Below, piece by piece: positions 32,957 to 56,711 of a stretch of 64,000 nt of DNA. This DNA is from Anaerolineae bacterium (GTDB taxonomy: Bacteria > Chloroflexota > Anaerolineae > DTLA01). Within the stretch, counting starts at the first letter, position 1, and the number at the start of each line of letters is the position of its first letter. The notes beneath the pieces are model-generated. The model saw nothing but the letters and a program-made list of their open reading frames with translations. It was not told where the DNA came from and made no database searches. The DNA lies in NCBI GenBank assembly GCA_029907165.1, contig JARYMK010000001.1, positions 6,661-70,660 of the forward strand, written 5' to 3'. Position numbers and translations under genes: made by a program.

Positions 32957-34175
32957 AAGGGCCAGCCTGTTCGCCGTCGTCCTGCTGCTGTTCGCCCTCG
33001 CGCTGGCGGCTCCCGTTCATGCGCAGGAGCCGTGGCCCGGCAGCCGACCGAGCGCGAAGGCGGAATTCGGCGCGGGCATCACGTTCGCGCTGCAAGCGCA
33101 GGCGGCCTCGCCCGTGCAGGCGCTGTACCTGTTCTACCAACTGGAAGGCGAGCGCGCCCGCAACCGCGTCAACCTAGAAGACACCGGCACGCGCATCAAT
33201 GCCGAGTGGACGTGGGAACTGGAGCCGGGGACCATCCCCCCTGGACGGGCCATCTCCTATTGGTGGCGGGCCGAACTGGCCGACGGGCGAACCCTGGAGA
33301 CCGAACGCGCCACGGTAACCTACGACGACACCCGCTTCACGTGGAAGCAGCGGCAAGAGGGCAACCTCATCCTCTACTGGTACGGCGATAGCCAACGCGA
33401 GGCCGACAAGATCATGACGGCTGCGCAGTCGGCTCTCCAGCGCCTGCAGGCCGGTACAGGCGTGGAACTCCATAAGCCCATCCGCATCTTCTTGTACCGC
33501 AGCAAGTCGGACATGCGGCTCGCCATCCCGTCGCGCAGCGAGGGATACGACATCGCGACGATCACCCTAGGCATGGCGATGGGCGGGGATACCATCGTCA
33601 TCCTGTCCACGGCTGCCGACGCCGACCGCACCATCGCCCACGAGTTGAGCCACATCGTCATCGGAGCGTTCACCGAGAACCCGCTGGGCGGCCTGCCCAC
33701 CTGGCTGGACGAGGGCCTGGCCATGTACGCCGAGGGAGACCTGCGCGGCGAGAACCAGGCCGACCTGGACCGGGCCATCCGCGCCAACACGCTCATCTCG
33801 GTGCGTTCGCTTTCTGCCTACACGGGCGACCCCTCGCAGGTGGATTTGTTCTACGGCGAGTGCTACTCAGTCGTCAAGTTCCTGATAGACACCTACGGCG
33901 CGGACAAGATGGACGCGCTCCTGAAGACGTTTAAGAGGGGCGTGTACCAAGAGGATGCCCTGCGGGAGGTGTACGGGTTCGGGATAGACGAACTGGACGC
34001 GCGCTGGCGGGAAGCCATCGGCGCGCCGCCGCAGCCGACGCCGGCCCCCACCGCGCCGCCCGTTTTGCCGACCCCGCGCCCGCAGGAGGAGCCGTCGTCC
34101 ACGCCGATATGCTCGTCGGGGGCGCTGATTCTGGCGGCACTGGGCGTGCTCGTGTGGCGCAGGGTCAGCGGGTAA
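32871..34175 (+). CDS. Putative secreted zinc metalloprotease (HExxH) with a C-terminal Thr/Pro-rich linker and a TM/basic-tail anchor.
   Basis: HELSHIVIG…WLDEGLAMYAEGD is a peptidase MA-like motif. The N-terminal signal …SPRRASLFAVVLLLFALALAAPVHA has a weakly Tat-like RR. The C-terminus is PTPAPTAPPVLPTPRPQEEPSSTPICSSGALILAALGVLVWRRVSG. The start codon is uncertain: a TTG at 32871 overlaps the upstream gene. Confidence 0.55.
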   Translation: MKRGTSTLTHRPSNWTSPKYRWTRWASPRRASLFAVVLLLFALALAAPVHAQEPWPGSRPSAKAEFGAGITFALQAQAASPVQALYLFYQLEGERARNRVNLEDTGTRINAEWTWELEPGTIPPGRAISYWWRAELADGRTLETERATVTYDDTRFTWKQRQEGNLILYWYGDSQREADKIMTAAQSALQRLQAGTGVELHKPIRIFLYRSKSDMRLAIPSRSEGYDIATITLGMAMGGDTIVILSTAADADRTIAHELSHIVIGAFTENPLGGLPTWLDEGLAMYAEGDLRGENQADLDRAIRANTLISVRSLSAYTGDPSQVDLFYGECYSVVKFLIDTYGADKMDALLKTFKRGVYQEDALREVYGFGIDELDARWREAIGAPPQPTPAPTAPPVLPTPRPQEEPSSTPICSSGALILAALGVLVWRRVSG

Positions 34176-34241
34176 CTTGACGGCAACCGCGCACGACTGC
34201 GAGTCTCTGGTGGACTGTCATTACGAAGGCGCTGCGCGCCC

Positions 34242-34274
34242 GAAGCAATCCCGCCGCACACCTGGGATTGCTTC
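34242..34274. terminator. Candidate bidirectional terminator hairpin between convergent genes.
   Basis: The perfect 11-bp stem GAAGCAATCCC…GGGATTGCTTC has an 11-nt loop. No clear U-tract follows. Confidence 0.4.
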
Positions 34275-34348
34275 GCTTCGCTCACAATGACGACGGACGA
34301 TCTTCTCTGTGGTTCAGTACTACGCCACCCTATTCGTGCAGATTCGCG

Positions 34349-35320
34349 TTATTCGTGGATGACGTCCTGCCCTCCAGTCGCGGCTCCCTGCCCATGGGTG
34401 TCGGGCTCGCGCTTGACGATGCGGAACGTGTCAAAGTCGTTGGCCACGACGGTGTTGGGGAAGATGGGCGTCGCCTCGTCCAGAATCTGCCGCTCCGAGT
34501 AGCGCCGCGAGATGTGCGTCAGGATGAGCAGGCGCGCGTTCGCCTCGGCGGCCAGGCGCGCAGCCTGCGACGCCGTCAGGTGGCCGAACTTCCGCGCCAT
34601 ATCGGTTTCCTCGTCGGTGTAGGTCGCCTCAATCACCAGGGCGTCGGCCTGGCGGGCCACGCTGACCAGCCCCTCGGTGCTGCCCGCATCGCCGACGAAA
34701 ACCAGTTTGGCCCCGCCGACCGGCGCGCCCAGCACGTCGTCGGGGGTAACCACGCGCCCGTCGGCCAGCCTCACCGTTTCGCCGCGTACCAGCCGCGCCC
34801 GCTCCGGCCCGGCGGGAACGCCCAGCGCCTCGGCTTTGTCCACCAGGAACGGCCGCTTCTCCTTCTCGTAGAACGTGAAGCCGAAGCATCCGGGCCCCCG
34901 GTGCTGCACGGGGAAGGCGATGAGAGCGAAAGAGTCGTCCTGCAGGACAATGCCTGGCTCTAGCGTTGTGTACACGATGTCAATAGGCGGGATGCCTTCG
35001 CCGAAGACCACATTCATCAAGGCCCGCACGCGCTCCAGCGCCCACGACCCACCCATGATCTCCACGCGGTCTATGGACTCCCAGCGGGCGAACGTGGACA
35101 TCAGCCCACCCAGGCCGAGGATGTGATCCAGATGCCCGTGAGTGATGAGGATGCGGTCCATGCGCTTGAAGCCCAGGCCGCTCTTGAGCAACTGCCGCTG
35201 GGTACCCTCGCCACAGTCTATCAGAAAGCGGTACTCCTTGTGGAGCACCATCGCCGACGACAGCCCGCGCTTGATGGACGGTGCCGATGCCGATGTTCCC
35301 AGGAAGATGAGTTCAAACAT
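34349..35320 (-). CDS. rnz: Ribonuclease Z (tRNA 3' endonuclease, MBL fold).
   Basis: MFELIFLGTSASAP…LIDCGEGTQRQLL…ILITHGHLDH is the metallo-beta-lactamase HxHxDH motif, and the protein has the RNase Z architecture. Confidence 0.85.
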   Translation of the reverse strand: MFELIFLGTSASAPSIKRGLSSAMVLHKEYRFLIDCGEGTQRQLLKSGLGFKRMDRILITHGHLDHILGLGGLMSTFARWESIDRVEIMGGSWALERVRALMNVVFGEGIPPIDIVYTTLEPGIVLQDDSFALIAFPVQHRGPGCFGFTFYEKEKRPFLVDKAEALGVPAGPERARLVRGETVRLADGRVVTPDDVLGAPVGGAKLVFVGDAGSTEGLVSVARQADALVIEATYTDEETDMARKFGHLTASQAARLAAEANARLLILTHISRRYSERQILDEATPIFPNTVVANDFDTFRIVKREPDTHGQGAATGGQDVIHE

Positions 35321-35400
35321 GTTGTCTCCACCATAGCATCGTTGCGAGCGTAGGGGTCACACGTGCGTCGCCCCAGCACTCTGTGGTTCAGGATGACAGG

Positions 35401-36540
35401 TCAGGCCATGTCATTGCCGCGCAGGGCAGGACTTTCCACCCCTAGCCCGCGGCCGCGCACCCGAACCAGCGCGCCTGCTGGGTGCGGCTCAATCTCCACA
35501 CGCGGGCTCAGGAACTGCCCGATGGCCCAGGCGTTGGTGCGTAAGTGCTCGGTGGCCCGCGGCGTGGTGAACGCCACATCCGCGTCGGCCAGCACCGCAG
35601 GCAGCAGCAACTGGTCTGCCAGATGCTCGTCCACGGCAGCCTTCGTCTCGTGAAACCGGATGAGTTCGCGGGCGGCCTCCTCGGCGACGCGCTCCGCAGG
35701 CTTGCGCAGCGCGCCGTAGGCGGTGAACCCGCCGATGCCGCTCTCGTATTCGGCCACGAGGAAGACCACCGTGCCGAAGCCCGCCGCCGGCGCGTCCATC
35801 TCCTGTATGTCGGCGCGCAGGCCCGCCTTGCGGAGCGTCTCCGTCGCCTGGGCCTTCTGCCGCTGGATGATGTGCTCGGGCAGATTGGACGCTGCGCTGA
35901 TGCCCCAGACGCGGGTTACGCGTCCCCGCCGCGTCCAGTCCAGGGAGTACACATCCCCCGCCGGGGCATCCCGCGGCTGGATGATGGCCTGCACCACGCC
36001 CCCGCCTTTCGGGTACCATCCCCAGCGTTGGATAGCGAGGTCGGCCCTGTAGCCGAGCGCCGCGACCGCCGACAGGTACACATGCGCCAGATAGTGAAAT
36101 GGCGGACTCCAGGGCACATGGGTGCCGCCGACCAGCGTCAACCGCGACGGTGCACCGGCAAGCGACAGGGGCAGGAACAGCGTCTGGAAGACCAGCGACA
36201 CCGCGCCCGCGCTTCCCCCCGCCTCTGTGGCCCCCACGTCAAAGGTGTAATCCCCGCCTGCGGGCCTGTGGCGGGGAACGAACAGCAGGTCCTGGGACCC
36301 GACGTGGTCGCCCTCCACCGCCGCACCCGAGATGGCCGCAGCCGCGCGCACCGCCATCAGGTGCTGCGGGCGTAGGCCCGGCTTGGGGCGGCCCGCGCGT
36401 ATCCGCCGCATCCGAAAAGGCCGACCCAGCGCCACGGCCAGCGAAAGCGCCGTGCGCAGAATCTGCCCGCCGCCCTCACCGAAGGAGCCGTCTATCTCCG
36501 GAACATCGGCCTGCGCCCCCGCCATGGTCGCCCCGCTCAC
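35401..36540 (-). CDS. rtcA: RNA 3'-terminal phosphate cyclase.
   Basis: [41 protein letters not shown]…QHL aligns closely with the E. coli RtcA N-terminus ([46 protein letters not shown]). Confidence 0.85.
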
Positions 36541-39014
36541 GGACTCGCGGCGACGGAATCGGACGGAAGTTCCACGCTTTCCTTGCGGTAGAAGCGGATG
36601 CCCGTATCGCCCGCGTCCACGATGATGACGTCGCCCTCTCGGAACTCCCCGCTCAGCAGGCGCAGGGCGAGGGCGTTCTCCACGTGCTTCTGGAGCGCCC
36701 GACGCAGGGGCCGCGCGCCGAAGTTGGGATCGTACCCCTCCCGCGCAAGCCAGTCGCGGGCAGCCTCGGTCAATTCCACCTCCACGCCCTGCTCCCGCAG
36801 CCGCGCGCGAATCTCCTTCATCTGCAGGTCCACGATTTGCTTGACCTGATCCAGGGTCAGCGTATGGAAGATGATGATCTCATCCACGCGGTTCAGGAAC
36901 TCGGGCCGGAAGGTCTCCCGCAGGCCGCGTTCAATGGCCTCGTGGGCGGCGCGCTCCTCGGAATCCCGTGTGTCGGCAGCCCGGAAGCCCAGGGTTCCCC
37001 CCTTGCGCGTGTACTGCGACCCGATGTTGGAGGTCATGATGACCACCGTGTTGCGGAAGTCCACCGTGTGGCCCTGGCCGTCGGTCAGGCGACCGTCCTC
37101 CAGAATCTGGAGCAGCGCGTTCCAGACTTCGGGGTGGGCCTTCTCAATCTCGTCAAAGAGCACCACCTGATAGGGTCTGCGGCGGACGGCCTCGGTCAGT
37201 TGACCGCCTTCCTCGTAGCCCACGTACCCGGGCGGCGCGCCGATGAGGCGGGAGACCGTGTGCCGCTCGCGGTACTCGCTCATGTCCACGCGCACCAGAG
37301 CGTCCTCGTCGTCAAACAGGAACCAGGCCAGCGCCTTGGCCAGTTCGGTCTTGCCGACGCCCGACGACCCCAGGAAGATGAACGAGCCGATGGGGCGGCG
37401 CGGGTCCTTCAGCCCGGACCGCGCCCGCCGAATGGCGTTGGACACGGCGCGGATGGCCTCGTCCTGGCCCACGATGCGCTCGTGGAGCCGCTCCTCCATG
37501 TGGAGGAGGCGCTCGGCCTCGGTCTCCAGGAGCGCCGTAACGGGGATGCCGGTCCATGTGGCGACCACCTCGGCGATGTCCTGCACGTCCACCACTTCGT
37601 CAATGTTCTTCTCGCGCTGCCAGGCTTCGCGGGCGGCGTTGAACTCCTGCTCCAGGCGCAGGCGCTCGGCGCGGTGGATCGCGGCCTTCTCGTAGTCGCG
37701 CTGCTGCCAGGCGGCCTCTTCCTCCGCTGCCAGTTTGTGGATCGCAGCGCGCTTCTCCTTCAGTTCGGGCGGCATGCTATGGATGGCCATCCGCAACTTG
37801 GAGGCGGCCTCGTCTATCAGGTCAATGGCCTTGTCGGGCAGGTGGCGCTCGGTTACGTAGCGTTTGGACAGGCGCGCGGCGGCCACCAGCGCCTCGTCTG
37901 AGAAGCGCACCTTGTGGTGCGCCTCGTAGCGGTCGCGCACGCCGCGCAGCATCTGGATGGTCTCCTCCACCGACGGCTCGTCCACGTACACGGGGGCGAA
38001 GCGGCGCTCCAGGGCGGCGTCTTTCTCTATGTAGCGGCGGTATTCGTCCAGCGTGGTGGCGCCCACGCACTGGAGCTCGCCCCTGGCCAGGGCTGGCTTC
38101 AGCATGTTGGAGGCATCCATAGCGCCCATGGCCGCGCCCGCGCCCACCACGGTGTGGAGTTCGTCAATGAACAGGATGATCTCGCCCTGGGCGCGCTGGA
38201 TTTCCTCAATGGCCGTCTTTAGGCGCTCCTCAAATTCGCCGCGGAACCGTGTGCCCGCCACCATCGCGCCCAGGTCCAGGGCCAGGACGCGCTTGCCCAT
38301 CAGGACTTCGGGCACGTCCTCTTGCACGATCTTCTGCGCCAGACCCTCCACGATGGCGGTCTTGCCCACGCCGGCCTCCCCGATGAGGACCGGGTTATTC
38401 TTAGTGCGGCGCGACAGAATCTGCATCACGCGCATGATCTCTTTGTCCCTGCCGATGACCGGGTCCAGTTTCCCCTCGCGCGCCAGTTGGGTCAGGTCAC
38501 GGGTGTACCGCTCCAGCGTCCGGTAGCGGGTCTCGGCCTGGGGCGAGGTAACCCTCTGCCCGCCCCGCACCTGCTCAATGGCCTCCATCGCCCGATCCCG
38601 CGTAACGCCCATTTCCTCCAGCAGGCGCGATGCGGGCGACCCGCGCTCGGCGATGATGGCGAGGAACAGGTGCTCGGTGGAGATGTAGTCGTCCTTGAGG
38701 CGATTCGCTTCCTCGTTGGCCGTGTCCACCACGTGCTTCAGGCGCGGCGTGATGAACATCTGGCCCGGCATCGTACTGCCGAAGGTGGGCGTTCTGGGCG
38801 CGGCGCGCAAAGTGGTCTCCAGGCGCTGCTTCAGCGCCTCGGTGTCCACGCCCAGTTTGTCCAGAATCTGGGGAATCACGCCCCCCGGCTGTTCTATCAG
38901 CGCCAGGAGCAGGTGCTCGGTATCCACCTGCGTGTGGTTGTAGCGCTGCAAAATCTCGTAGGCGCGCATGGCTGCATCCTGCGCGCGCTCCGTGAAACGG
39001 TCAAATCGCATCAT
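36537..39014 (-). CDS. clpB: ATP-dependent chaperone ClpB (two AAA+ modules with a coiled-coil middle domain).
   Basis: The Clp N-domain repeats, Walker [14 protein letters not shown] and [14 protein letters not shown], and the sensor motifs are present. Length is 825 aa. Confidence 0.9.
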
Positions 39015-39059
39015 AGAGTTTCCCCTCGCCGGTATGCACCGGCTCTGTGGTTCAGGCCA

Positions 39060-40151
39060 CTAGTAGCGAAGGATGGCCCCAATCTGGCCTGCACGTTTCA
39101 GGTCCTCGTTCCCCTGCACGAACTCTATCTCTACGCCCCGCCGGATGGCGCGGCGGACGATGGCATCCACAGCGTCTTTGACAGGAACCATGGGGCCTCC
39201 GCAATAGACGCATGTCTTGGTCTTCTGCGCGCCGATATAGCCACAGTGGTCGCATCGGAATGCCGTGGCCTGAAACCCCTCTTCCACCAGAAGGATATGC
39301 ACGCGCTCCTCTTGCAACGCGGTCAGGGTGTCGGCCAGGCCGATGGCTCCCGGCCCGCCTTTGGTTGCCGCGGTGATCATCTGCTGAATCAGTGCGGCCT
39401 CGCGGTCGCGTTCGGCCTTCTCCAGCAGATCTTGCGCACGCGCCAGCGCCTCGCTCTCCGACGCGGTAATGTCTATGGGCATGGTGCCAATCACGCTGTC
39501 GCGGAGCGCCTTGGGCAGCATGGACAGGAAGCGCGACACGGTTTCCTCCTGCCCGCCCGCGATGAGCCGCTTGCACCGGTGCTTGTTGCAGAAATCCTTG
39601 ACCAGCGTTACGGCATCTTTCAAGTTCTGGTGGGCTTTCTCATCTTGGCGGCGCTGCAACCGCTGGGCTGCCCAGCCGCCCTTCTTGTGCCGCTTCAGTT
39701 CCGTGCCGAACGTCCCGGCCGTGTCCTCTACGATGCCCAGGTGGTACAGGATGACCCGCGCGCCTTCCTGGTCCACCAGCGCGACCGCAAAGCGGCCATA
39801 CTCGTCCAGCATGTCGCTGAGCGGCTTCACGTAGGGCCGATCGGCCACGAACACGTGGTTGCTGACCGGCACGCTGACCGGCAGGGCCCGCCAGAAGTCC
39901 TGCGCCTGGCAGGAGAACATGGCCAGCCCCTTGGCTTGCCAGTCGTATTCCAACTCCACGAAACGATCCATGCGGTCGGCGTCAGCCTGGGCCGCGCCCA
40001 GCGCCACCGCCTGCTTCAGCATCCCCCTAAGGCTCAACTTGACTTCGTCCTTGACGTGGCGGGAAGGATCTGTGCTAAGGTACAGGCTCAACACCGTGGC
40101 TCCATCTGCGTGGAAAGCAGCCAGTTCACGAACATCCTTTTCGTCAAACAT
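39060..40151 (-). CDS. eRF1/Pelota (Dom34)-like release-factor-family protein, bacterial type, with GGW in place of GGQ and a C-terminal CxxC…CxxC zinc ribbon.
   Basis: …GTELKRHKKGGWAAQRLQRRQ… aligns with the eRF1 domain-2 GGQ loop (KKHGRGGQSALRFARLR), with Q replaced by W. The overall length and alternating domain pattern fit the eRF1/Pelota fold. Domain 3 carries the insert CDHCGYIG…CVYCGG. Confidence 0.6.
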   Translation of the reverse strand: MFDEKDVRELAAFHADGATVLSLYLSTDPSRHVKDEVKLSLRGMLKQAVALGAAQADADRMDRFVELEYDWQAKGLAMFSCQAQDFWRALPVSVPVSNHVFVADRPYVKPLSDMLDEYGRFAVALVDQEGARVILYHLGIVEDTAGTFGTELKRHKKGGWAAQRLQRRQDEKAHQNLKDAVTLVKDFCNKHRCKRLIAGGQEETVSRFLSMLPKALRDSVIGTMPIDITASESEALARAQDLLEKAERDREAALIQQMITAATKGGPGAIGLADTLTALQEERVHILLVEEGFQATAFRCDHCGYIGAQKTKTCVYCGGPMVPVKDAVDAIVRRAIRRGVEIEFVQGNEDLKRAGQIGAILRY

Positions 40152-40188
40152 ACTGTCCTCCTGTCTGCATGATCCGATTCTGTTCCGC

Positions 40189-40530
40189 CTACTCGCTACT
40201 CTGCAACTTGCTTTTCAGCAAGGCGACCTCGCGCTCAAAGCGTGCCTGTAGGGCCTCCATCTCCGCCTTCATCTGTGCCACTTGATCCATCAGCGACAGA
40301 ATCGCCTCTACCCCTGCAAGATTGACGCCCAACTCCTCTGTGAGACGCTGAATCTGCCGCAATCGTTCAATGTCGCTGGGCGAGTACAGCCGCCGGTTGC
40401 CCGGCGAGCGGCAGGGCTTGATCAGCCCCAGGCTCTCGTAGTAGCGCAGAGTCTGGGGATGTACCCCTACCATTTTCGCTGCCACGCTGATGACGTAGCA
40501 GGGTTCCTGATGCGACGGACTGTCGCTCAC
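40189..40530 (-). CDS. hspR: MerR-family heat-shock repressor HspR-like regulator.
   Basis: GTG start. The HTH is YVISVAAKMVGVHPQTLRYYESLGLI…RSPGNRRLYS. The C-terminal coiled coil and the position beside clpB are typical of HspR. Confidence 0.7.
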   Translation of the reverse strand: MSDSPSHQEPCYVISVAAKMVGVHPQTLRYYESLGLIKPCRSPGNRRLYSPSDIERLRQIQRLTEELGVNLAGVEAILSLMDQVAQMKAEMEALQARFEREVALLKSKLQSSE

Positions 40531-40544
40531 GAGTGGCCTCCAGA

Positions 40545-41699
40545 CTACTCACGCGGGCGCTGGCCCAGTGTAACCTTGATGGACAACCGCTCCGTCCCGC
40601 GAATCACGTCCAGCACCACGACCTGCCCGGCCTCGGTGAAGTCCAGGTAACTGATGAGCGAGTCCATGCCGGTTACGCGGTTGCCGTCTATGCCCACGAT
40701 GATGTCGCCGCCCGCGCGGACAGCCTCCACGTAGCCGGGCACGCGCACGGTGCGCCGTCCACCGCGCAGGCCGGCCTTCTCGGCGGGACCGCCCGGCGTT
40801 ACCTCTCCCACGAGCGCGCCGCGGTCCACGGGCAGGCTCAGCGCCTCAACGAGTTCCGGCGTGATGGTGTAGCCCCGGATGCCCAGCCACGGGTGCGCGT
40901 AGAAGCCGTCCTTGATGAGCGCGGGCACCACCTTCTTGACGACGTTGACGGGGATGGCAAAGCCAAGCCCCGCCGATGCGCCTGTCTCCGAGATGATCAT
41001 GGTGTTGACGCCGATGACGCGGCCCCGCAGGTCTAGCAGTGGCCCGCCGGAGTTGCCCGGGTTGATGGCAGCGTCGGTCTGGATCAGGTTGGCGATGGAG
41101 AAGCCGCTCTCCTGCGGGAACACCCGCCCCAGGGCGCTGATGATCCCCCGCGTTACCGTGCGCTCCAGCCCGAACGGGTTGCCGATGGCGATGGCCCACT
41201 GGCCTACCTGCACCTTGCTGGAGTCGCCCAGTTCCGCCGGCACGATGAGGTCGGCGGGCGCGTCCACGACAATCACCGCCAGGTCGGCGTCGGGGTCGGT
41301 GCCCACCACCTCGGCCGGCACCTGCGAGCCATCGGCCAGCACCACGCGGATGGTCTCCGCGTCCCTCACCACGTGGTTGTTGGTAACGATGTGCCCTTCG
41401 CGGTCATAGAAGAAGCCGGAGCCCGAACCGGACCCCGTGGCCGTCGTTACCTGGATGTGCACGACCGACGGGCCGACGCGCTGGAACAGGTTCACCAGCA
41501 GGCGCTCCTCCAGTTCCAGCGCCTCGTAGTCTTGCTGGGGCAGCGGCGTGGCTGTGGCCACCACCAGGGGCAGCGTCGTTGGCTGGGCCGTGGGTCGGGT
41601 GGTGGATGCGCCGTCCCCCGTGAACCCGCAGCCCAGCAGCAGAAGCAGGGCCGCCGCGAAGAAGAGCCAGAACTTTCGTACATCAAACCGCGCTTTCAT
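40545..41699 (-). CDS. htrA: HtrA/DegP-family periplasmic serine protease with PDZ domain (lipoprotein signal).
   Basis: The signal with LLLLLGCG, the catalytic triad motifs (TNNHVV…DLAVI…GNSGGPL) and a C-terminal PDZ domain are present. Confidence 0.85.
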   Translation of the reverse strand: MKARFDVRKFWLFFAAALLLLLGCGFTGDGASTTRPTAQPTTLPLVVATATPLPQQDYEALELEERLLVNLFQRVGPSVVHIQVTTATGSGSGSGFFYDREGHIVTNNHVVRDAETIRVVLADGSQVPAEVVGTDPDADLAVIVVDAPADLIVPAELGDSSKVQVGQWAIAIGNPFGLERTVTRGIISALGRVFPQESGFSIANLIQTDAAINPGNSGGPLLDLRGRVIGVNTMIISETGASAGLGFAIPVNVVKKVVPALIKDGFYAHPWLGIRGYTITPELVEALSLPVDRGALVGEVTPGGPAEKAGLRGGRRTVRVPGYVEAVRAGGDIIVGIDGNRVTGMDSLISYLDFTEAGQVVVLDVIRGTERLSIKVTLGQRPRE

Positions 41700-41889
41700 T
41701 CGTGCATTGCTCCTCTGAGATTCAGGCTGTCCGTGTGCACGGTACAGCGAGCGGGGAAGTTCCTGCCGCGAAACGACTGCGAACCGAAGGGCATCATGCT
41801 ACACCACCCGCCTTTCGCGTACCGAGCGGTGCCGAGGTACGTCCCGAATTGACCGGTTGAGGCGCTAGGGTTGAAGAATCTCTATGCGT

Positions 41890-41919
41890 ATTATAGCACG
41901 AGTTGCGGCCGAATGTCAA
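41890..41919 (-). promoter_or_regulatory. Minus-strand sigma-70-type promoter (TTGACA-18-TATAAT) ~185 nt upstream of htrA.
   Basis: The reverse complement of 41890-41919 reads TTGACAttcggccgcaactcgtgcTATAAT. It is the presumptive promoter of the htrA–hspR–eRF1-like–clpB–rtcA operon. Confidence 0.55.
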
Positions 41920-42014
41920 TACCTACAGCCGCATTGTGAGGAAATCTTACACGGTGATTGTAAGAAATCGCCGCGGGCGAGGCGCTCCGACTCTCGCGCT
42001 TGCACGGGTGCGCA

Positions 42015-42407
42015 TCAGTCAGAGTCCAGCCAATTCACAAACTGGCGAGGTGTTACGATGGGAGTACCCTGGAATTCACCCAGAAGGAGGAGATACTGAT
42101 CGCCGGAGATGATGCAAACCACGCGGCCCGCCACCGCCGCTGCCAGCACAGCATTGTCCCCCGGATCGCGGCGGGCAGCCAGCGTCTCGGCAGGAGTAAC
42201 CCACTCCGCACCGAGCGCCACGAGGTCCACCCACTCCTCGGCAAGGCCGGGCTGCGCATTGACGCGCGTAGCGAGGGTGTGCAAGACACGGCCCAGTTCA
42301 TCCAATAGGGCAGGCGACATGACAGCCTCAAACTCGCCGTCGCGCCAGCGCAGCAACAACCGGTTTGGCAGTCCGGTCCAGAAGATGCCAGAGACCCGAG
42401 ATGTCAA
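42015..42407 (-). CDS. PIN-domain (PIN_3 / VapC-like) protein, apparently N-terminally truncated or interrupted and possibly a pseudogene.
   Basis: The C-terminal PIN motifs are present (…DPGDNAVLAAAVAGRVVCIISGDQYLL…). The ORF starts with TTG directly after an in-frame TGA. The frame upstream of that stop encodes …ACIVDVS, resembling the missing VVLDTNV N-terminal strand. Confidence 0.4.
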   Translation of the reverse strand: MTSRVSGIFWTGLPNRLLLRWRDGEFEAVMSPALLDELGRVLHTLATRVNAQPGLAEEWVDLVALGAEWVTPAETLAARRDPGDNAVLAAAVAGRVVCIISGDQYLLLLGEFQGTPIVTPRQFVNWLDSD

Positions 42408-54107: not shown

Positions 54108-56711
54108 ATGGAGATCATCGCAACGCACGAGAACACGGATTTTGACGCGCTGGCGTCGCTGTTGGCGGCGTCCAAACTATACCCGCACGCCACGCCCGTC
54201 CTCCCACGTCGGCTGAACCGCAACGTGCAGGATTTCGTTACGCTGTACTGGGAGCAACTGCCGTTCTGGCACGCCGAGGACTTGCCGCGGAAGCCCATCA
54301 CGCGCCTCATCCTCGTGGACACCCAGACGATTCCCACGCTCAAGGGCATGGGCAAGCACACGCGGATGGAGATCATTGACCATCACCCGCGCAGCGCCGA
54401 CCTGCCCGAGGGCGTTGCGTTCTCGTCGGCCGAAACGGGCGCGACGACGACGCTGCTGGTGGAGCAAATCTCGCAGGCGCTGGTGCCCATCTCGCCCATT
54501 GAGGCGACGCTTCTCCTGCTCGGCATCTACGAGGACACAGGCTCGCTCAGTTACCTGACGACGACGGCCCGCGACGCCAGGGCGGCTGCGTGGCTCTTGG
54601 ACCGCCACGCGAACCTGGAGGTGGCCAACCGCTACCTGCGCTATCCTCTCACCGAGCGGCAGCGTGCCCTCTACGATCAACTGGTGCAGAACAGCGAAAT
54701 CTTTGAGTTCAGCGGGCAGGTGGTAGCCATCGCTACTGCCACCGTGCCGGAGTACGTGGAGGAAATCTCCACGCTGGCCCACAAGTTGCGGGACTTGCTG
54801 GACCCCGACGCGCTGTTCGTCATCGTGCAAATGGACGAGAACGTGCAGATCGTGGCGCGCAGCACGTCCGACGCGGTCAACGTGGCTGACGCGGCGGCGT
54901 TCTTCGGCGGGGGCGGGCATAGCCGAGCCGCAGCCGCCCTTGTCCGTGGACAGAGCGCGGTGGAGGTCAAGGAGGCGCTGGTGGCCTACCTGAAGGAGCG
55001 GGTGATGCCCGCCGTTACTGTGGGCGAGATCATGTCCTACGGCGTCCACACGGTCAGCCCTGACACGACCATCGCCGAGGCCGCCGATCTCATGACGCGC
55101 TACGGCCACGAGGGCTTCCCGGTGGTGGAGCGCGGCAAGGTCATCGGCATCCTGACGCGCCGCGAGGTGGACCGGGCGTTGCACCACAAACTCGGCGGCG
55201 CGCCCGTGCGGCTGTACATGGTGGCGGGCGACGTAACCGTGTCGCCGACCGATCCGGTGGAGAAACTGCGCCAGGTGATGGTGGAGCATCGTGTGGGCCA
55301 GGTGCCGGTAGTGCGCGACGGCGAAGTCATCGGCATCGTAACCCGCACGGACTTGCTGAAACTGTGGGCTGTGCCCCCCAGCCCTCGCCGGGCGGAAATC
55401 GCCGCCAAACTGGCCGAGTCGCTGCCCCCGTCGCTGCTGCGGCTCATCCAGGAGGTGGGACGTGAAGCCGACGAGATGCAGGCATCGGCCTACCTGGTGG
55501 GCGGGTTCGTGCGCGACCTGCTGCTCGGCATCCCCAACTTTGACATAGACTTCGTGGTGGAGGGCGACGCCATTCGCCTGGCGCGCAGGCTGGCGCGACG
55601 CATTGGCGGCAAGGTCCGCGTCCACGCCCAGTTCAAGACAGCCAACTGGCTCCTGGAGGGCATCCCAGACGGCGAGCCGGAGTTCCCGGGCAACATTGAC
55701 TTCGTAACCGCGCGGACCGAGTTCTACGAGGAGCCGACGGTGCTCCCCAAGGTGGAGCGCAGTTCCATCAAGTTGGATTTGCACCGCCGGGATTTCACCA
55801 TCAATACCCTTGCCATCCGGGTGGACCCGGAGCACTTCGGCGAACTGCTGGATTTCTACGGCGGCGAGGCGGACCTGAACCACAAGATCATCCGCGTCTT
55901 GCACAGTCTGAGTTTCGTGGAGGACCCGACGCGGATGCTGCGGGCCGCCCGCTTTGAGACGCGCATGGGCTTCCACATGGAGCCGCGCACCGAGGAGTTG
56001 CTGCGCAACGCGGTGGATTTGCTGGACAAGGTCTCCGGGCCGCGCATTCTCCACGAGTTGCTCCTGATTCTGGAGGAGCAGGCGCCCGAGGCCATCCTGT
56101 GCCGCCTGCAGGAGTTGGGCATCCTGCGCCACATCTCGCCCAGCCTGGTCTGCGACGCATGGCTCCAGGAGCGATTCCGACGCCTGCGCGAACCGACGCC
56201 ACCCTGGGGCGAGAAGCCCGTGGGCGATGGGCTGCGCGACGCCTACCTGGCGCTGCTCACGGCCCGCCTGCCCGAGCGCGAACAGGCCGCCTTCATGGAG
56301 CGGTTCCGGCTCCGCCGCCAACTGGCCGACCTGCTCCTGGCGACGGCGCAGTTGTTGGCGAACGAGCGGCAGCTTGCCCGCCGCGCGATGCGGCCCAGCG
56401 AGGTCTGCCGCATCCTGGACGCCGCGCCTCTGGACGCCGTGAAGTTGCTGTGGTATGCCGCCTCGGCCGAGGCCGTGCAGGAGCGGGTAGCCGATTACGT
56501 CCTGCGCCTGCGCCATGTGCGCCCCGAAATCACCGGCCACGACCTCGAAGCCATGGGGCTGTCGCCGGGGCCGCTGTACAAGAACATCCTGGCGGCGGTG
56601 CTGGCGGCCCGCCTGGACGGCGAGGTGAGCACCCGCGAGGAGGAGAAGGCGCTGGTGCAGCGCATCCTGGCCGAGGGGCGCGAGTTGCCCGCTGCCTGGC
56701 CGCGCCGATAG
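54108..56711 (+). CDS. Multidomain tRNA nucleotidyltransferase (CCA-adding)/poly(A) polymerase-family enzyme with N-terminal DHH/DHHA1 phosphoesterase and tandem CBS domains.
   Basis: The DHH motif (LILVDTQTIP…IIDHHP), GGGGH (DHHA1), two CBS domains, and the PolA head motif LVGGFVRDLLLG…DIDFVV with the RxxRF tRNA-NT region are present. Length is 867 aa. Confidence 0.8.
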   Translation: MEIIATHENTDFDALASLLAASKLYPHATPVLPRRLNRNVQDFVTLYWEQLPFWHAEDLPRKPITRLILVDTQTIPTLKGMGKHTRMEIIDHHPRSADLPEGVAFSSAETGATTTLLVEQISQALVPISPIEATLLLLGIYEDTGSLSYLTTTARDARAAAWLLDRHANLEVANRYLRYPLTERQRALYDQLVQNSEIFEFSGQVVAIATATVPEYVEEISTLAHKLRDLLDPDALFVIVQMDENVQIVARSTSDAVNVADAAAFFGGGGHSRAAAALVRGQSAVEVKEALVAYLKERVMPAVTVGEIMSYGVHTVSPDTTIAEAADLMTRYGHEGFPVVERGKVIGILTRREVDRALHHKLGGAPVRLYMVAGDVTVSPTDPVEKLRQVMVEHRVGQVPVVRDGEVIGIVTRTDLLKLWAVPPSPRRAEIAAKLAESLPPSLLRLIQEVGREADEMQASAYLVGGFVRDLLLGIPNFDIDFVVEGDAIRLARRLARRIGGKVRVHAQFKTANWLLEGIPDGEPEFPGNIDFVTARTEFYEEPTVLPKVERSSIKLDLHRRDFTINTLAIRVDPEHFGELLDFYGGEADLNHKIIRVLHSLSFVEDPTRMLRAARFETRMGFHMEPRTEELLRNAVDLLDKVSGPRILHELLLILEEQAPEAILCRLQELGILRHISPSLVCDAWLQERFRRLREPTPPWGEKPVGDGLRDAYLALLTARLPEREQAAFMERFRLRRQLADLLLATAQLLANERQLARRAMRPSEVCRILDAAPLDAVKLLWYAASAEAVQERVADYVLRLRHVRPEITGHDLEAMGLSPGPLYKNILAAVLAARLDGEVSTREEEKALVQRILAEGRELPAAWPRR

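Follow-up and report, generated by a model that had tools for sequence, protein, structure and literature searches.

The protein discussed here belongs to baeRF-1 family 10, which was defined by Burroughs & Aravind in 2019 and singled out by them as possibly catalytic (PMC6514570). Published work on the family member and Balon homologue Msmeg1130 includes its cryo-EM structure on the ribosome and its inhibition of translation; Msmeg1130 and Rv2629 both bind in the ribosomal A site and inhibit protein synthesis in vitro (PMC10901736). Balon genes are found in stress operons with Hsp20, DnaK, DnaJ, and RtcB, and YocB, the B. subtilis homologue, is heat-induced (PMC10901736). Eukaryotic Vms1 partners the AAA+ protein Cdc48 (PMC6514570). 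Cleavage of tRNA by ANKZF1 leaves a 2',3'-cyclic phosphate; RNase Z(S)/ELAC1 takes this off, and CCA is then added back (bioRxiv 10.1101/2021.08.05.455008, PMC11897441).

The operon and its promoter region

In the 64-kb window (the whole stretch of DNA that was analysed), a promoter on the minus strand is followed by an operon of six genes, all of which were found as open reading frames: htrA, hspR, an eRF1-like gene, a Clp ATPase gene, rtcA, and rnz.

41946..41964, no strand assigned: CTTACA-N7-TGTAAG, an inverted repeat without mismatches that lies 27 bp 5' of the -35 element; candidate repressor operator
41922..41940, no strand assigned: degenerate second copy of this repeat (2 mismatches), abutting the -35 element
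41890..41919, minus: sigma-70-type promoter, TTGACA-18 nt-TATAAT with TG extension
41700..41883, minus: 5' leader from promoter to htrA, ~185-190 nt, the first ~115 nt conserved in sequence
40545..41699, minus: htrA, HtrA/DegP serine protease with PDZ domain (Trypsin_2, 130 bits; PDZ_2), secreted or lipoprotein-type, N-terminus ending in ...LLLLGC
40189..40530, minus: hspR, MerR-family heat-shock repressor (Pfam MerR_1; NCBIfam HspR equivalog NF047375, 119 bits against a cut-off of 105)
39060..40151, minus: eRF1-like gene, aeRF1 superfamily, 363 aa, Pfam baeRF_family10; putative Balon-related A-site factor
36537..39014, minus: Clp ATPase, ClpC-type double-ring AAA+ unfoldase, 825 aa
36984..36992, minus: LGF tripeptide of the Clp ATPase, residues 675-677, at the position of the ClpP-docking loop (VGF) of ClpC
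35401..36540, minus: rtcA, RNA 3'-terminal phosphate cyclase (TIGR03399, 364 bits against a cut-off of 250)
34349..35320, minus: rnz, short-form RNase Z, 80 nt 3' of rtcA (NCBIfam NF000801, 269.5 bits against a cut-off of 252)
34241..34275, no strand assigned: inverted repeat, perfect 12-bp stem and 11-nt loop, between the convergent rnz and Peptidase_MA genes

The six genes are co-directional, as originally predicted. The spacing of 3-45 nt given with that prediction applies to the first five genes only, since the first three gaps measure 14, 37, and 45 nt, the clp stop codon and the rtcA start share 4 nt (GTGA), and 80 nt separate rtcA from rnz. rnz had also been placed within positions 35401-41919 and lies outside them. 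A consensus scan of the clp-rtcA and rtcA-rnz junctions reported no terminator-like sites. The inverted repeat beyond rnz is probably where the transcription unit ends, although it is not called a terminator by the consensus scan.

The Clp ATPase, first taken for the disaggregase ClpB, is assigned as a ClpC-type unfoldase. It aligns in one colinear match to ClpC of B. subtilis and S. aureus, its M-domain is ~65 residues shorter than that of a syntenic true ClpB, and its score of 1150 bits lies below the NCBIfam ClpB cut-off of 1232. The LGF region is a 10-residue insert that is absent from the syntenic ClpB.

As first described, the promoter matches the consensus, at 12 of 12 positions, and is the only promoter-like site in the 8.4 kb scanned (34000-42400). 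Its -35 and -10 elements are kept in the related metagenome-assembled genome (MAG) loci L001-L003, and promoter elements are visible in L018-L021. Two matches to the CTTACA-N7-TGTAAG repeat are observed while 0.31 are expected. The perfect copy is conserved in L001 and L003; in L002 both arms are changed (CTCACA...TGTGAG) and the spacer is shorter by one base. For the second copy, the left arm alone is conserved in L002 and L003. The repeat is a candidate operator, possibly that of HspR. The 5' leader matched no Rfam family, and structure prediction gives it a stability no greater than that of shuffled sequence (z = +0.68).

The HspR identity of the presumptive repressor holds, but the operon promoter lacks both the HAIR operator in its canonical form and the HAIR-like version known from Chloroflexota. 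In 1.5 Mb of related loci, the HAIR-like motif CTTGACA-N7-NCTAAAG gives 14 exact matches, and each of these falls 60-117 nt ahead of the gene that opens the operon. The inference of HspR control for this operon draws only on hspR within it, on the HAIR-like sites of relatives, and on a different conserved upstream repeat.

The eRF1-like factor

The 363-aa factor matches Pfam baeRF_family10 (PF18854) with 121 bits; Msmeg1130, which reaches 125 bits with this model, is the best PDB sequence match of the factor (phmmer, E = 1.3e-11). The AlphaFold2 model (pLDDT 88.8, pTM 0.77) is closest in Foldseek to the ribosome-bound Balon entries 8v9l and 8v9j (E = 1.8e-26 and 3.5e-25, TM-score 0.72). Entries 8v9k and 8rdv, also Balon, likewise rank over eRF1 and Pelota. 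The predicted model thus gives confident assignment to the aeRF1 fold of the eRF1/Pelota superfamily, as anticipated. The splitting or rescue role like that of Pelota/Dom34, once held more plausible, loses ground here: since the closest structures are Balon and Pelota matches are much weaker, hibernation or A-site blocking is better precedented than ribosome splitting. The view that such a bacterial aeRF1-family protein is uncharacterised is out of date, as Msmeg1130 shares its Pfam family. The factor also scores far under the cut-offs of all three NCBIfam families of Balon-type hibernation factors (92 against 480, 87 against 320, and 44 against 330). It is an atypical, divergent member of baeRF_family10, a relative of the known Balon and not a new kind of system.

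Two features of the factor are of interest.

39645..39695, minus: loop KRHKKGGWAAQRLQRRQ, residues 153-169, with GGW at 39672-39680
39201..39254, minus: zinc ribbon (C300, C303, C314, C317), inserted in the C-terminal domain

The loop is colinear with the eRF1 GGQ loop and lacks the catalytic Gln, as first noticed: in the phmmer alignment, GGWAAQR of the factor stands opposite GGQSAQR of archaeal aRF1. The family consensus, KRHKQGG[W/F]AAxRxQR, is aRF1-like with a conserved aromatic residue in place of this Gln. Among 118 full-length homologues, the residue after Gly-Gly is Trp in 70, Phe in 14, another residue in the others, and Gln in none, and 43 of the 118 have no Gln within three residues past that position. 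G159 is invariant and G158 is conserved at 90% or more. The low model confidence at residues 154-158 (pLDDT below 50) points to a flexible loop. Loops with W, F, L, I, R, P, or S and with long Gly/Arg insertions occur without any change in synteny. A syntenic 370-aa subclade has an expanded Gly/Arg-rich loop, similar to the loops of non-catalytic baeRF-1 families, which are unconstrained (PMC6514570). In more distant relatives the loop reads GGWSQ and so agrees with GGxSQ, the motif of predicted-active VLRF-1 families. Another GGQ, at residues 199-201, is rejected as the catalytic loop because a predicted core beta-strand (195-200) ends there and relatives have GGT or GGS in the alignment.

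The four Cys of the zinc ribbon are intact, in agreement with the original prediction. They are invariant in two alignments (A1 and A4), and CCCC is found in ~95% of 136 distant representatives, whereas the aligned segment of Msmeg1130 has no Cys. Where the factor keeps a zinc ribbon, Balon instead has a Cys-less beta-hairpin that contacts EF-Tu. The factor also retains the Gly-Gly and basic flanks of the aRF1 catalytic loop, unlike Balon. Loops of typical non-catalytic baeRF-1 families are poorly conserved; this one is highly conserved, as would be expected if it had a defined task in the peptidyl-transferase centre.

Gene order in related loci

Across 96 related loci, the Chloroflexota order (Band7)-(GrpE)-DnaJ-HtrA-HspR-factor-(ClpB)-ClpC is strongly conserved and co-directional. 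Of 59 loci, 46 have a Clp ATPase gene at most 4 kb downstream of the factor, frequently less than 100 nt away, and the other 13, all of Chloroflexota type, have none at this distance. HspR, HtrA, or DnaJ is encoded upstream in 56 of 62. This order is kept from 95% down to ~36% protein identity while the flanking genes vary. Three Nitrospirota homologues (31-35% identity) lack it and neighbour amidohydrolase, GATase, and transporter genes. The predicted coupling to HspR, HtrA, and Clp is thus conserved, but the linkage to rtcA is not: of 38 loci, 6 have rtcA/rnz behind clpC, and these belong without exception to the clade of the window (at least 70% identity). RNA repair is therefore not a conserved property of the system, contrary to the proposed RNA-repair module; the genes for RtcA and RNase Z lie outside the conserved core and extend the transcription unit downstream in this clade alone.

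Possible roles of the factor

Most likely, though with only about an even chance, the factor is a heat-induced, non-hydrolytic A-site blocker that pauses translation and protects ribosomes, encoded in an autoregulated HspR-type heat-shock operon of an uncultured member of the Chloroflexota (Anaerolineae/Caldilineae-like). Proteotoxic stress would relieve HspR repression, and the factor would be co-produced with HtrA, a periplasmic protease, and with the ClpC-type unfoldase. Judging from its fold and the solved ribosome complexes of homologues, it would enter the ribosomal A site in the manner of Balon and aRF1. Stop-codon reading is not expected since its N-domain has no NIKS motif. The flexible, basic GG-Trp loop would reach towards the peptidyl-transferase centre and, as no Gln directly follows Gly-Gly, most likely fills it without hydrolysing peptidyl-tRNA. 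Translation would thereby be braked reversibly and ribosomes protected while chaperones and proteases clear damaged protein. The Balon-like fold, the published behaviour of Balon homologues, the lack of the catalytic Gln in the clade, the stress-regulon gene order, and the HAIR-like sites of relatives support this reading. The missing Balon traits, the conserved loop, the low Balon-family scores, the GGWSQ relatives, the possible catalysis raised for family 10 by Burroughs & Aravind, and the lack of a HAIR-type operator speak against it.

It is possible, but rather unlikely, that the factor instead rescues ribosomes in partnership with the AAA+ unfoldase, much as Vms1-Cdc48 or Pelota do in other organisms. 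When heat has stalled ribosomes or split their subunits, it would enter the A site of the stalled 70S ribosome or of a 50S-peptidyl-tRNA complex; the nascent chain would be freed by drop-off or tRNA 3'-end cleavage, and ClpC with ClpP would extract and degrade it. The tight adjacency to the Clp ATPase gene, the LGF docking loop, and the pairing of Vms1 with Cdc48 fit this, as does the GG-aromatic loop, whose strong conservation and predicted flexibility recall the catalytic loop of release factors. RtcA and RNase Z could repair damaged tRNA 3' ends in the clade of the window, comparable to the steps after ANKZF1 cleavage; however, their linkage is limited to that clade, and RNase Z also has a housekeeping role in tRNA processing. 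The Pelota and Dom34 structural matches, much weaker than those of Balon and aRF1, count against rescue, and so does ABCE1, the ribosome-splitting partner of Pelota, which bacteria are not known to have. The variety of residues that the loop tolerates within the same synteny argues against precise chemistry, and gene order of a regulon can come from co-regulation alone.

An active, codon-independent peptidyl-tRNA hydrolase, in which the Gly-Gly backbone positions water without a Gln side chain, would agree with the product name at NCBI ('Vms1/Ankzf1 family peptidyl-tRNA hydrolase') but is distinctly improbable. The near-invariant Gly-Gly, the aRF1-like KRH flanks, the alignment with aRF1, the GGWSQ relatives, and the proposal of Burroughs & Aravind are in its favour, but no close homologue has Gln directly past Gly-Gly, none of the positions nearby holds a conserved Gln in the Chloroflexota clade, and the score with the NCBIfam acVLRF1 model is 24 bits where 125 are required. 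In bacterial release factors, hydrolysis reportedly falls only modestly with most replacements of the Gln of GGQ and is abolished when a Gly is replaced (Shaw & Green 2007; Santos et al. 2013), which would favour a hydrolase; the bulky Trp at the Gln position counts against one. Uncontrolled release of nascent chains in heat shock would also increase the unfolded-protein load. Very unlikely, too, is that the gene order reflects shared regulation only, with the factor a general stationary-phase or starvation hibernation factor that sits in the heat-shock operon by chance, without a functional link to HtrA, ClpC, RtcA, or RNase Z. The Nitrospirota neighbourhoods, the Chloroflexota-type loci without a nearby Clp ATPase, and the differing neighbours of Balon genes between phyla agree with it. 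Against it stands the persistence of the order while flanks change, which usually reflects selection for co-expression.

Operon layout and gene neighborhood

Six co-directional ORFs lie on the minus strand between 34349 and 41919.

Genes of the operon, in gene order, with the assignments obtained
40545-41699, minus strand, HtrA/DegP protease with a PDZ domain (Pfam and NCBIfam)
40189-40530, minus strand, hspR, MerR family (NCBIfam HspR equivalog cut-off passed, 119 vs 105 bits)
39060-40151, minus strand, aeRF1-like protein of 363 aa (Pfam baeRF_family10)
36537-39014, minus strand, double-ring Clp AAA+ ATPase (Pfam and NCBIfam)
35401-36540, minus strand, RtcA (NCBIfam TIGR03399 cut-off passed, 364 vs 250 bits)
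34349-35320, minus strand, RNase Z (NCBIfam NF000801 cut-off passed, 269.5 vs 252 bits)

The intergenic gaps in this order are 14, 37, and 45 nt, a 4-nt overlap (GTGA), and 80 nt. A perfect TTGACA-18-TATAAT, extended by TG (41919-41890), is the sole promoter-like site in 8.4 kb, and a leader of about 185-190 nt separates it from htrA. No terminator-like sites were reported by the scan in the intergenic junctions, and a perfect 12-bp hairpin is found 3' of rnz (34241-34275). The original prediction described a six-gene operon containing an eRF1-like protein (the factor hereafter) with a GGW loop and a zinc ribbon. Both features of the protein are present as described, the loop as KRHKKGGWAAQRLQRRQ at residues 153-169 and the zinc ribbon with four cysteines (Cys 300, 303, 314, and 317), so this observation stands with two corrections. 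The spacing of 3-45 nt that was claimed fails for rnz, with its gap of 80 nt, and the gene labeled clpB encodes a ClpC-type protein instead.

The Clp ATPase gives a single end-to-end alignment to ClpC of B. subtilis (915 bits) and S. aureus, while its matches to ClpB are split in two at the M-domain. A syntenic Chloroflexota locus encodes a true ClpB of 863 aa. Relative to this ClpB, the window's ATPase has an M-domain about 65 residues shorter and an extra 10-residue insert, which contains an LGF that aligns with the VGF ClpP-docking tripeptide of ClpC. The ClpB cut-off (TIGR03346) is missed, 1150 vs 1232 bits in two stretches. A ClpB disaggregase would have a long two-wing M-domain and would lack the ClpP-docking loop. 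By its short UVR-like M-domain and (V/L)GF loop, this enzyme is a ClpC-type unfoldase. In some related loci, short ClpB fragments exist between the eRF1-like gene and ClpC (L016:7238-7498, e.g., an 86-aa ClpB_D2-small ORF, and L043/L045:7360-8298). These fragments appear to be decaying remnants of a gene that is kept there elsewhere, which suggests that ClpB was lost from this position in several lineages, including that of the window.

An 867-aa ORF on the plus strand (54108-56711) was considered as the 'real' ClpB and rejected, as it is a DHH-DHHA1-CBS-PolyA_pol fusion. It has DHH, DHHA1, two CBS, PolyA_pol head, and RNA-binding domains, and looks like a fusion of a DHH phosphoesterase with a nucleotidyltransferase of the CCA-adding or poly(A) polymerase type. 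Lying about 15 kb from the operon, it is only loosely relevant, as an enzyme of tRNA 3' ends. No tRNA genes, which were sought for a genome-encoded CCA, were found in the 64-kb window.

Gene neighborhoods were compared among 96 loci by tblastn (9 loci from genomes, 7 from contig look-ups, and 80 from metagenomes, the metagenome scan using the homolog alignment A1). The co-directional order (Band7)-(GrpE)-DnaJ-HtrA-HspR-factor-(ClpB)-ClpC is strikingly constant in these loci and persists from 95% to about 36% identity of the factor. Of the 62 loci that extend at least 1.5 kb upstream, 56 have HspR, HtrA, or DnaJ on that side. Of the 59 loci that extend at least 2 kb downstream, 46 have a Clp ATPase no more than 4 kb away (ClpC-type in 42 and ClpB in 13). 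The linkage to hspR and Clp genes proposed in the original prediction is thus frequent in Chloroflexota loci, but the linkage to rtcA and rnz is not: these two genes follow ClpC in only 6 of the 38 loci with enough sequence, all in the window's clade (at least 70% identity). The RNA-end-processing genes are a recent addition to the operon. Three Nitrospirota relatives (31-35% identity) have unrelated neighbors. The heat-shock context was therefore rejected as a general property of the GGW/zinc-ribbon subfamily; it was seen in the Chloroflexota loci and in none of the three Nitrospirota loci checked.

In L001, the locus of a 95%-identical MAG, rtcA and rnz are about 670 nt apart, compared with 80 nt in the window. 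This spacer (L001:12777) holds a sequence that is also found near L001:82, which suggests a small repeat or an insertion.

Fold, loop, and zinc ribbon of the factor

The best Pfam family of the factor is PF18854 (baeRF_family10), which matches the middle domain (residues 106-240) with 121 bits against a gathering score of 27.1. Pfam acVLRF1 is a secondary match (40 bits). Msmeg1130, the mycobacterial homolog of the ribosome hibernation factor Balon, also belongs to baeRF_family10 (124.6 bits in a Pfam scan of a sequence reconstructed from a printed alignment), and it is the best PDB sequence match of the factor (E = 1.3e-11), with archaeal aRF1 and eRF1 behind. The factor does not reach the cut-offs of the Balon-type NCBIfam hibernation-factor equivalogs (MSMEG_1130, 92 vs 480 bits; Rv2629, 87 vs 320 bits; AOC03_06830, 44 vs 330 bits), of aRF1/eRF1 (TIGR03676, 76.7 vs 234.7 bits), or of NCBIfam acVLRF1 (NF041024, 24 vs 125 bits). 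A 100%-identical protein of an Anaerolineae MAG has the NCBI product name 'Vms1/Ankzf1 family peptidyl-tRNA hydrolase'; this name and the 'ClpB' label are probably both misleading. An exhaustive HMMER search identifies 3,637 relatives at E <= 1e-3, 399 of them at E <= 1e-30. Every related genome locus belongs to a Chloroflexota MAG, and the distant relatives include Nitrospirota, Actinomycetota, Patescibacteria, and WOR-3.

An AlphaFold2 model of the factor, built on 55 homologs, has a pLDDT of 88.8 and a pTM of 0.77, with disorder confined to residues 154-158, before and into the Gly-Gly. The model has the three-domain architecture N, M (RNase H-like), and C (Pelota-type), and Foldseek gives full-length matches to Balon, aRF1, eRF1, and Pelota with probability 1.00. 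The eRF1/Pelota-superfamily fold, which the original prediction had left to structure prediction, is therefore confirmed. Among PDB entries, proteins of the Balon type are the best structural matches (Msmeg1130 and Rv2629 of mycobacteria and Balon of Psychrobacter urativorans; PDB 8v9j, 8v9l, 8v9k, and 8rd8; TM-score 0.65-0.72; PMC10901736). Ribosome-bound Msmeg1130 is at the top (E = 1.8e-26, TM-score 0.72), followed by aRF1 (4af1, E = 7e-21), Rv2629, P. urativorans Balon, and eRF1. Pelota/Dom34 is a far weaker match (E about 1e-10, TM-score about 0.4).

The GGW loop (residues 158-160) retains the aRF1 loop nearly residue for residue, with Trp replacing the catalytic Gln, and is colinear with KKHxxGGQSAQRF of aRF1. 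Gly-Gly and the aRF1-like basic flanks are highly conserved, while Msmeg1130 has no GG there. Among 118 full-length close homologs, the residue after Gly-Gly is W in 70 and F in 14, occasionally L, I, R, P, S, or Y, and Q in none. GGxSQ is the motif of the predicted-active VLRF-1 families described by Burroughs and Aravind (PMC6514570), who note a 'well-conserved glutamine' for family 10. The loop of the window reads GGWAAQ and the Gln position varies in its clade, so GGxSQ/GxxQ with a conserved Gln is not found here; a Gln within three residues after the W/F position is missing in 43 of the 118 close homologs. The distant relatives mostly have H-K-Q-G-G-W-S-Q-x-R-F-Q-R-H, and the Gln in their GGWSQ may be the conserved glutamine noted for family 10. 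A GGQ at residues 199-201 was rejected as a hidden catalytic motif, since it lies at the predicted end of a core beta-strand and is GGT or GGS in relatives. In a syntenic subclade of 370-aa proteins (P0026, P0027, P0031-P0033, P0035, and others; e.g., loci L026-L035), a Gly/Arg-rich loop, KRMKHGRGSAAGRRGGVxGRTGRREEE, is found instead of KRHKQGGW. With this expanded loop, loop length is plastic within one operon context.

The zinc-ribbon cysteines are invariant in the homolog alignments A1 and A4, and CCCC is present in about 95% of 136 distant representatives. The four-Cys ribbon aligns with a Cys-less segment of Msmeg1130, so the factor does not have the Cys-less beta-hairpin of Balon. No NIKS motif is present in the factor sequence, and its N-domain is short and divergent.

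The factor and Balon have in common the three-domain aeRF1 architecture, the absence of NIKS and of the GGQ glutamine, a C-terminal LR[YW] ending, and location in a stress operon. However, their identity is only about 15-21%, and the EF-Tu-binding hairpin of Balon sits in the domain where the factor has its zinc ribbon. Where the factor has a Gly-Gly loop with basic flanks and a conserved Trp/Phe, Balon has a divergent 'lasso' loop and a bL27 trap. The neighbors of the factor are HspR, HtrA, and ClpC, whereas those of Balon are RaiA, Hsp20, or the hypoxia regulon. With aRF1/eRF1 the factor shares the fold and, as in archaeal aRF1, the C-domain zinc ribbon, and its C-terminal G-x-IGAxLRY motif also occurs in eRF1 sequences. 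It differs from them in GGW for GGQ, the lack of NIKS, and a shorter N-domain. Bacteria terminate translation with RF1 and RF2, and the host here is a bacterium, unlike the users of aRF1/eRF1. Among the bacterial versions encountered in this analysis, the Chloroflexota subfamily is the most aRF1-like, with its intact zinc ribbon, Gly-Gly loop, and conserved Trp in the catalytic position.

Vms1/ANKZF1 and bacterial VLRF-1 resemble the factor in the aeRF1-superfamily middle domain, the product name, and the secondary Pfam match, and GGWSQ of the distant relatives fits GGxSQ. Unlike VLRF-1, however, the factor has baeRF_family10 as its best Pfam family, and the motif's Gln lacks conservation in the window's clade. 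It also retains the N-terminal domain, which is lost in acVLRF-1 (PMC6514570), and the C-terminal Pelota-type domain.

Family 10 is a named and discussed bacterial aeRF1 family (Burroughs and Aravind 2019, PMC6514570). For one of its branches, structures and biochemistry have established a role in ribosome hibernation at the A site (Helena-Bueno et al. 2024, PMC10901736). Balon binds this site with EF-Tu, inhibits translation, and touches the decoding center through an HP motif, and its genes are often found within stress operons with Hsp20, DnaK, DnaJ, and RtcB (PMC10901736). The existence of bacterial aeRF1 homologs, one hibernating branch, and a chaperone-operon location are therefore known already, and the family as such is not uncharacterized. 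Of the operon and the GGW/zinc-ribbon subfamily, no description was found in the accessible literature on HspR and eRF1, on Balon and ClpB, or in the supplements of the Balon paper.

Possible roles of the factor

The best-supported reading, to which we give about an even chance, is that of a Balon-type A-site factor that is under heat-shock control and does not hydrolyze peptidyl-tRNA. Under proteotoxic stress, the factor would sit on ribosomes, reduce the supply of newly made unfolded proteins, and protect active sites. Meanwhile HtrA and ClpC and, in relatives, DnaJ, GrpE, and ClpB would handle the damage. This reading takes the observed fold, family, lack of Gln after Gly-Gly, conserved synteny, and HspR identity, and would add heat induction, binding to the A site, and absence of hydrolysis.

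The Balon-type reading is open to doubt mainly because the subfamily is more aRF1-like than Balon, with a strongly conserved Gly-Gly-aromatic loop and an intact zinc ribbon. The same features keep two other explanations alive. A role in rescue or release in which the factor is coupled to ClpC, as Vms1 is to Cdc48, seems rather unlikely; the AAA+ ATPase gene adjoining that of the factor recalls the Vms1-Cdc48 pair. Pelota/Dom34, the model for the splitting or rescue role originally proposed, is of one superfamily with the factor, and both lack the catalytic Gln. Bacteria are not known to have ABCE1, and Pelota is not known to have a conserved Gly-Gly loop. The rtcA-rnz extension is suggestive, given that tRNA cleaved by ANKZF1 carries a 2',3'-cyclic phosphate that is taken off by RNase Z(S)/ELAC1 (bioRxiv 10.1101/2021.08.05.455008, PMC11897441), but its narrow distribution makes a coincidence more likely. 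Gln-independent hydrolysis of peptidyl-tRNA by the factor, which the aRF1-like loop would allow to be considered, is improbable in our view.

A more elaborate analogy, which we regard as a long shot, would cast the GG-Trp factor as the Vms1/ANKZF1 of bacteria, acting together with an AAA+ unfoldase. Upon heat shock, stalled ribosomes or 50S-peptidyl-tRNA complexes would be entered by the factor, which would free the nascent chain through non-canonical chemistry, either cleavage of the tRNA 3' end or hydrolysis independent of Gln. ClpC-ClpP would take the chain, and in the window's clade the tRNA 3' end would be restored by the co-transcribed RtcA and RNase Z, like ELAC1 and TRNT1 in eukaryotic ribosome quality control.

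Balon-type factors were recognized only in 2024 (PMC10901736), and their wiring into stress regulons is largely unexplored. Here the factor has a fixed place between a heat-shock repressor and the ClpB/ClpC unfoldases. With the features of the subfamily, this makes it a testable question whether A-site occupancy, as a brake or for nascent-chain release, is coupled directly to protein quality control. The subfamily is also a natural 'GGQ to GGW' variant for dissecting the release-factor loop at the peptidyl-transferase center.

Promoter, candidate operators, and leader

As in the HspR/HAIR regulons of Streptomyces, Helicobacter, and Campylobacter, an HspR equivalog is encoded inside the operon that it presumably represses. 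An aeRF1-like factor with ClpC, RtcA, and RNase Z was not found as HspR-regulon content in the literature searched. The published consensus of HAIR, the HspR operator, is CTTGAGT-N7-ACTCAAG (PMC6102357). The canonical operator has no match in the whole window at up to 3 mismatches, and the Chloroflexota HAIR-like variant is likewise absent near the window's promoter at up to 3 mismatches. In relatives, the HAIR-like sequence CTTGACA-N7-NCTAAAG overlaps the -35 and spacer of the promoters of operons that begin with dnaJ or grpE. All 14 exact matches in 1.5 Mb (both strands) are located 60-117 nt upstream of the first operon gene. This element is probably the HspR operator of the Chloroflexota phylum, and its position at the operon promoters of relatives supports HspR control of this operon type.

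HAIR-like elements in related loci (locus:position)
L013:1287
L014:1574
L024:118
L041:4505
L047:3512
L048:3272
L056:2534
L062:4503
L066:4506
L073:4506
L074:4514
L085:1501

In the window's clade, the operon no longer contains dnaJ and grpE. Unlike the known regulons, its promoter has a different element, a perfect palindrome CTTACA-N7-TGTAAG, 27 bp upstream of the -35. The palindrome is conserved in L001 and L003, and in L002 both arms are changed together, reading CTCACA and TGTGAG, and the spacer is shorter by one base. It is a reasonable candidate operator, with HspR as the putative binder. A PIN_3-domain gene (42015-42407, minus strand) ends just upstream of the operon promoter and is followed by a weak 5-bp terminator-like hairpin (41968-41980), the T-run of which overlaps the left arm of the palindrome.

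The first approximately 115 nt of the leader (41765-41884, minus strand) are far better conserved among L001-L003 and L018-L020 than the remaining intergenic region. Conserved stretches are, e.g., TAGAGATTCTTCAACCCTAGCGCCTCA... and CCTCGGCACCGCTCGG...GAAAGGCGGGTG, and a direct repeat, CTTCAACC/CCTCAACC, exists just past the likely transcription start. An Rfam scan of the window reached no gathering score, leaving the conserved leader without a known RNA family. An RNA thermometer or structured element was rejected, as the minimum free energy is no better than that of shuffled sequences (z = +0.68). Covariation in the leader is almost absent among the only four close sequences.

A motif of 13-14 nt, (C)CTGAACCACAGAG, is found on the sense strand in intergenic regions of the operon, in three exact copies and one with 2 mismatches. 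One site each follows the eRF1-like gene, rtcA, and rnz, and another immediately precedes the ribosome-binding site of htrA.

Copies of the (C)CTGAACCACAGAG motif
34305-34318, minus strand, intergenic
35379-35392, minus strand, intergenic
39043-39056, minus strand, intergenic
41713-41726, minus strand, intergenic

The 64-kb window has six matches compared with 1.2 expected by chance, and the two distant ones have 2 mismatches each. In the 95%-identical L001, a single copy persists, with 1 mismatch, namely that following the eRF1-like gene, and the other loci of the clade lack the motif. It may serve in processing or binding, or may be a repeat specific to this strain.
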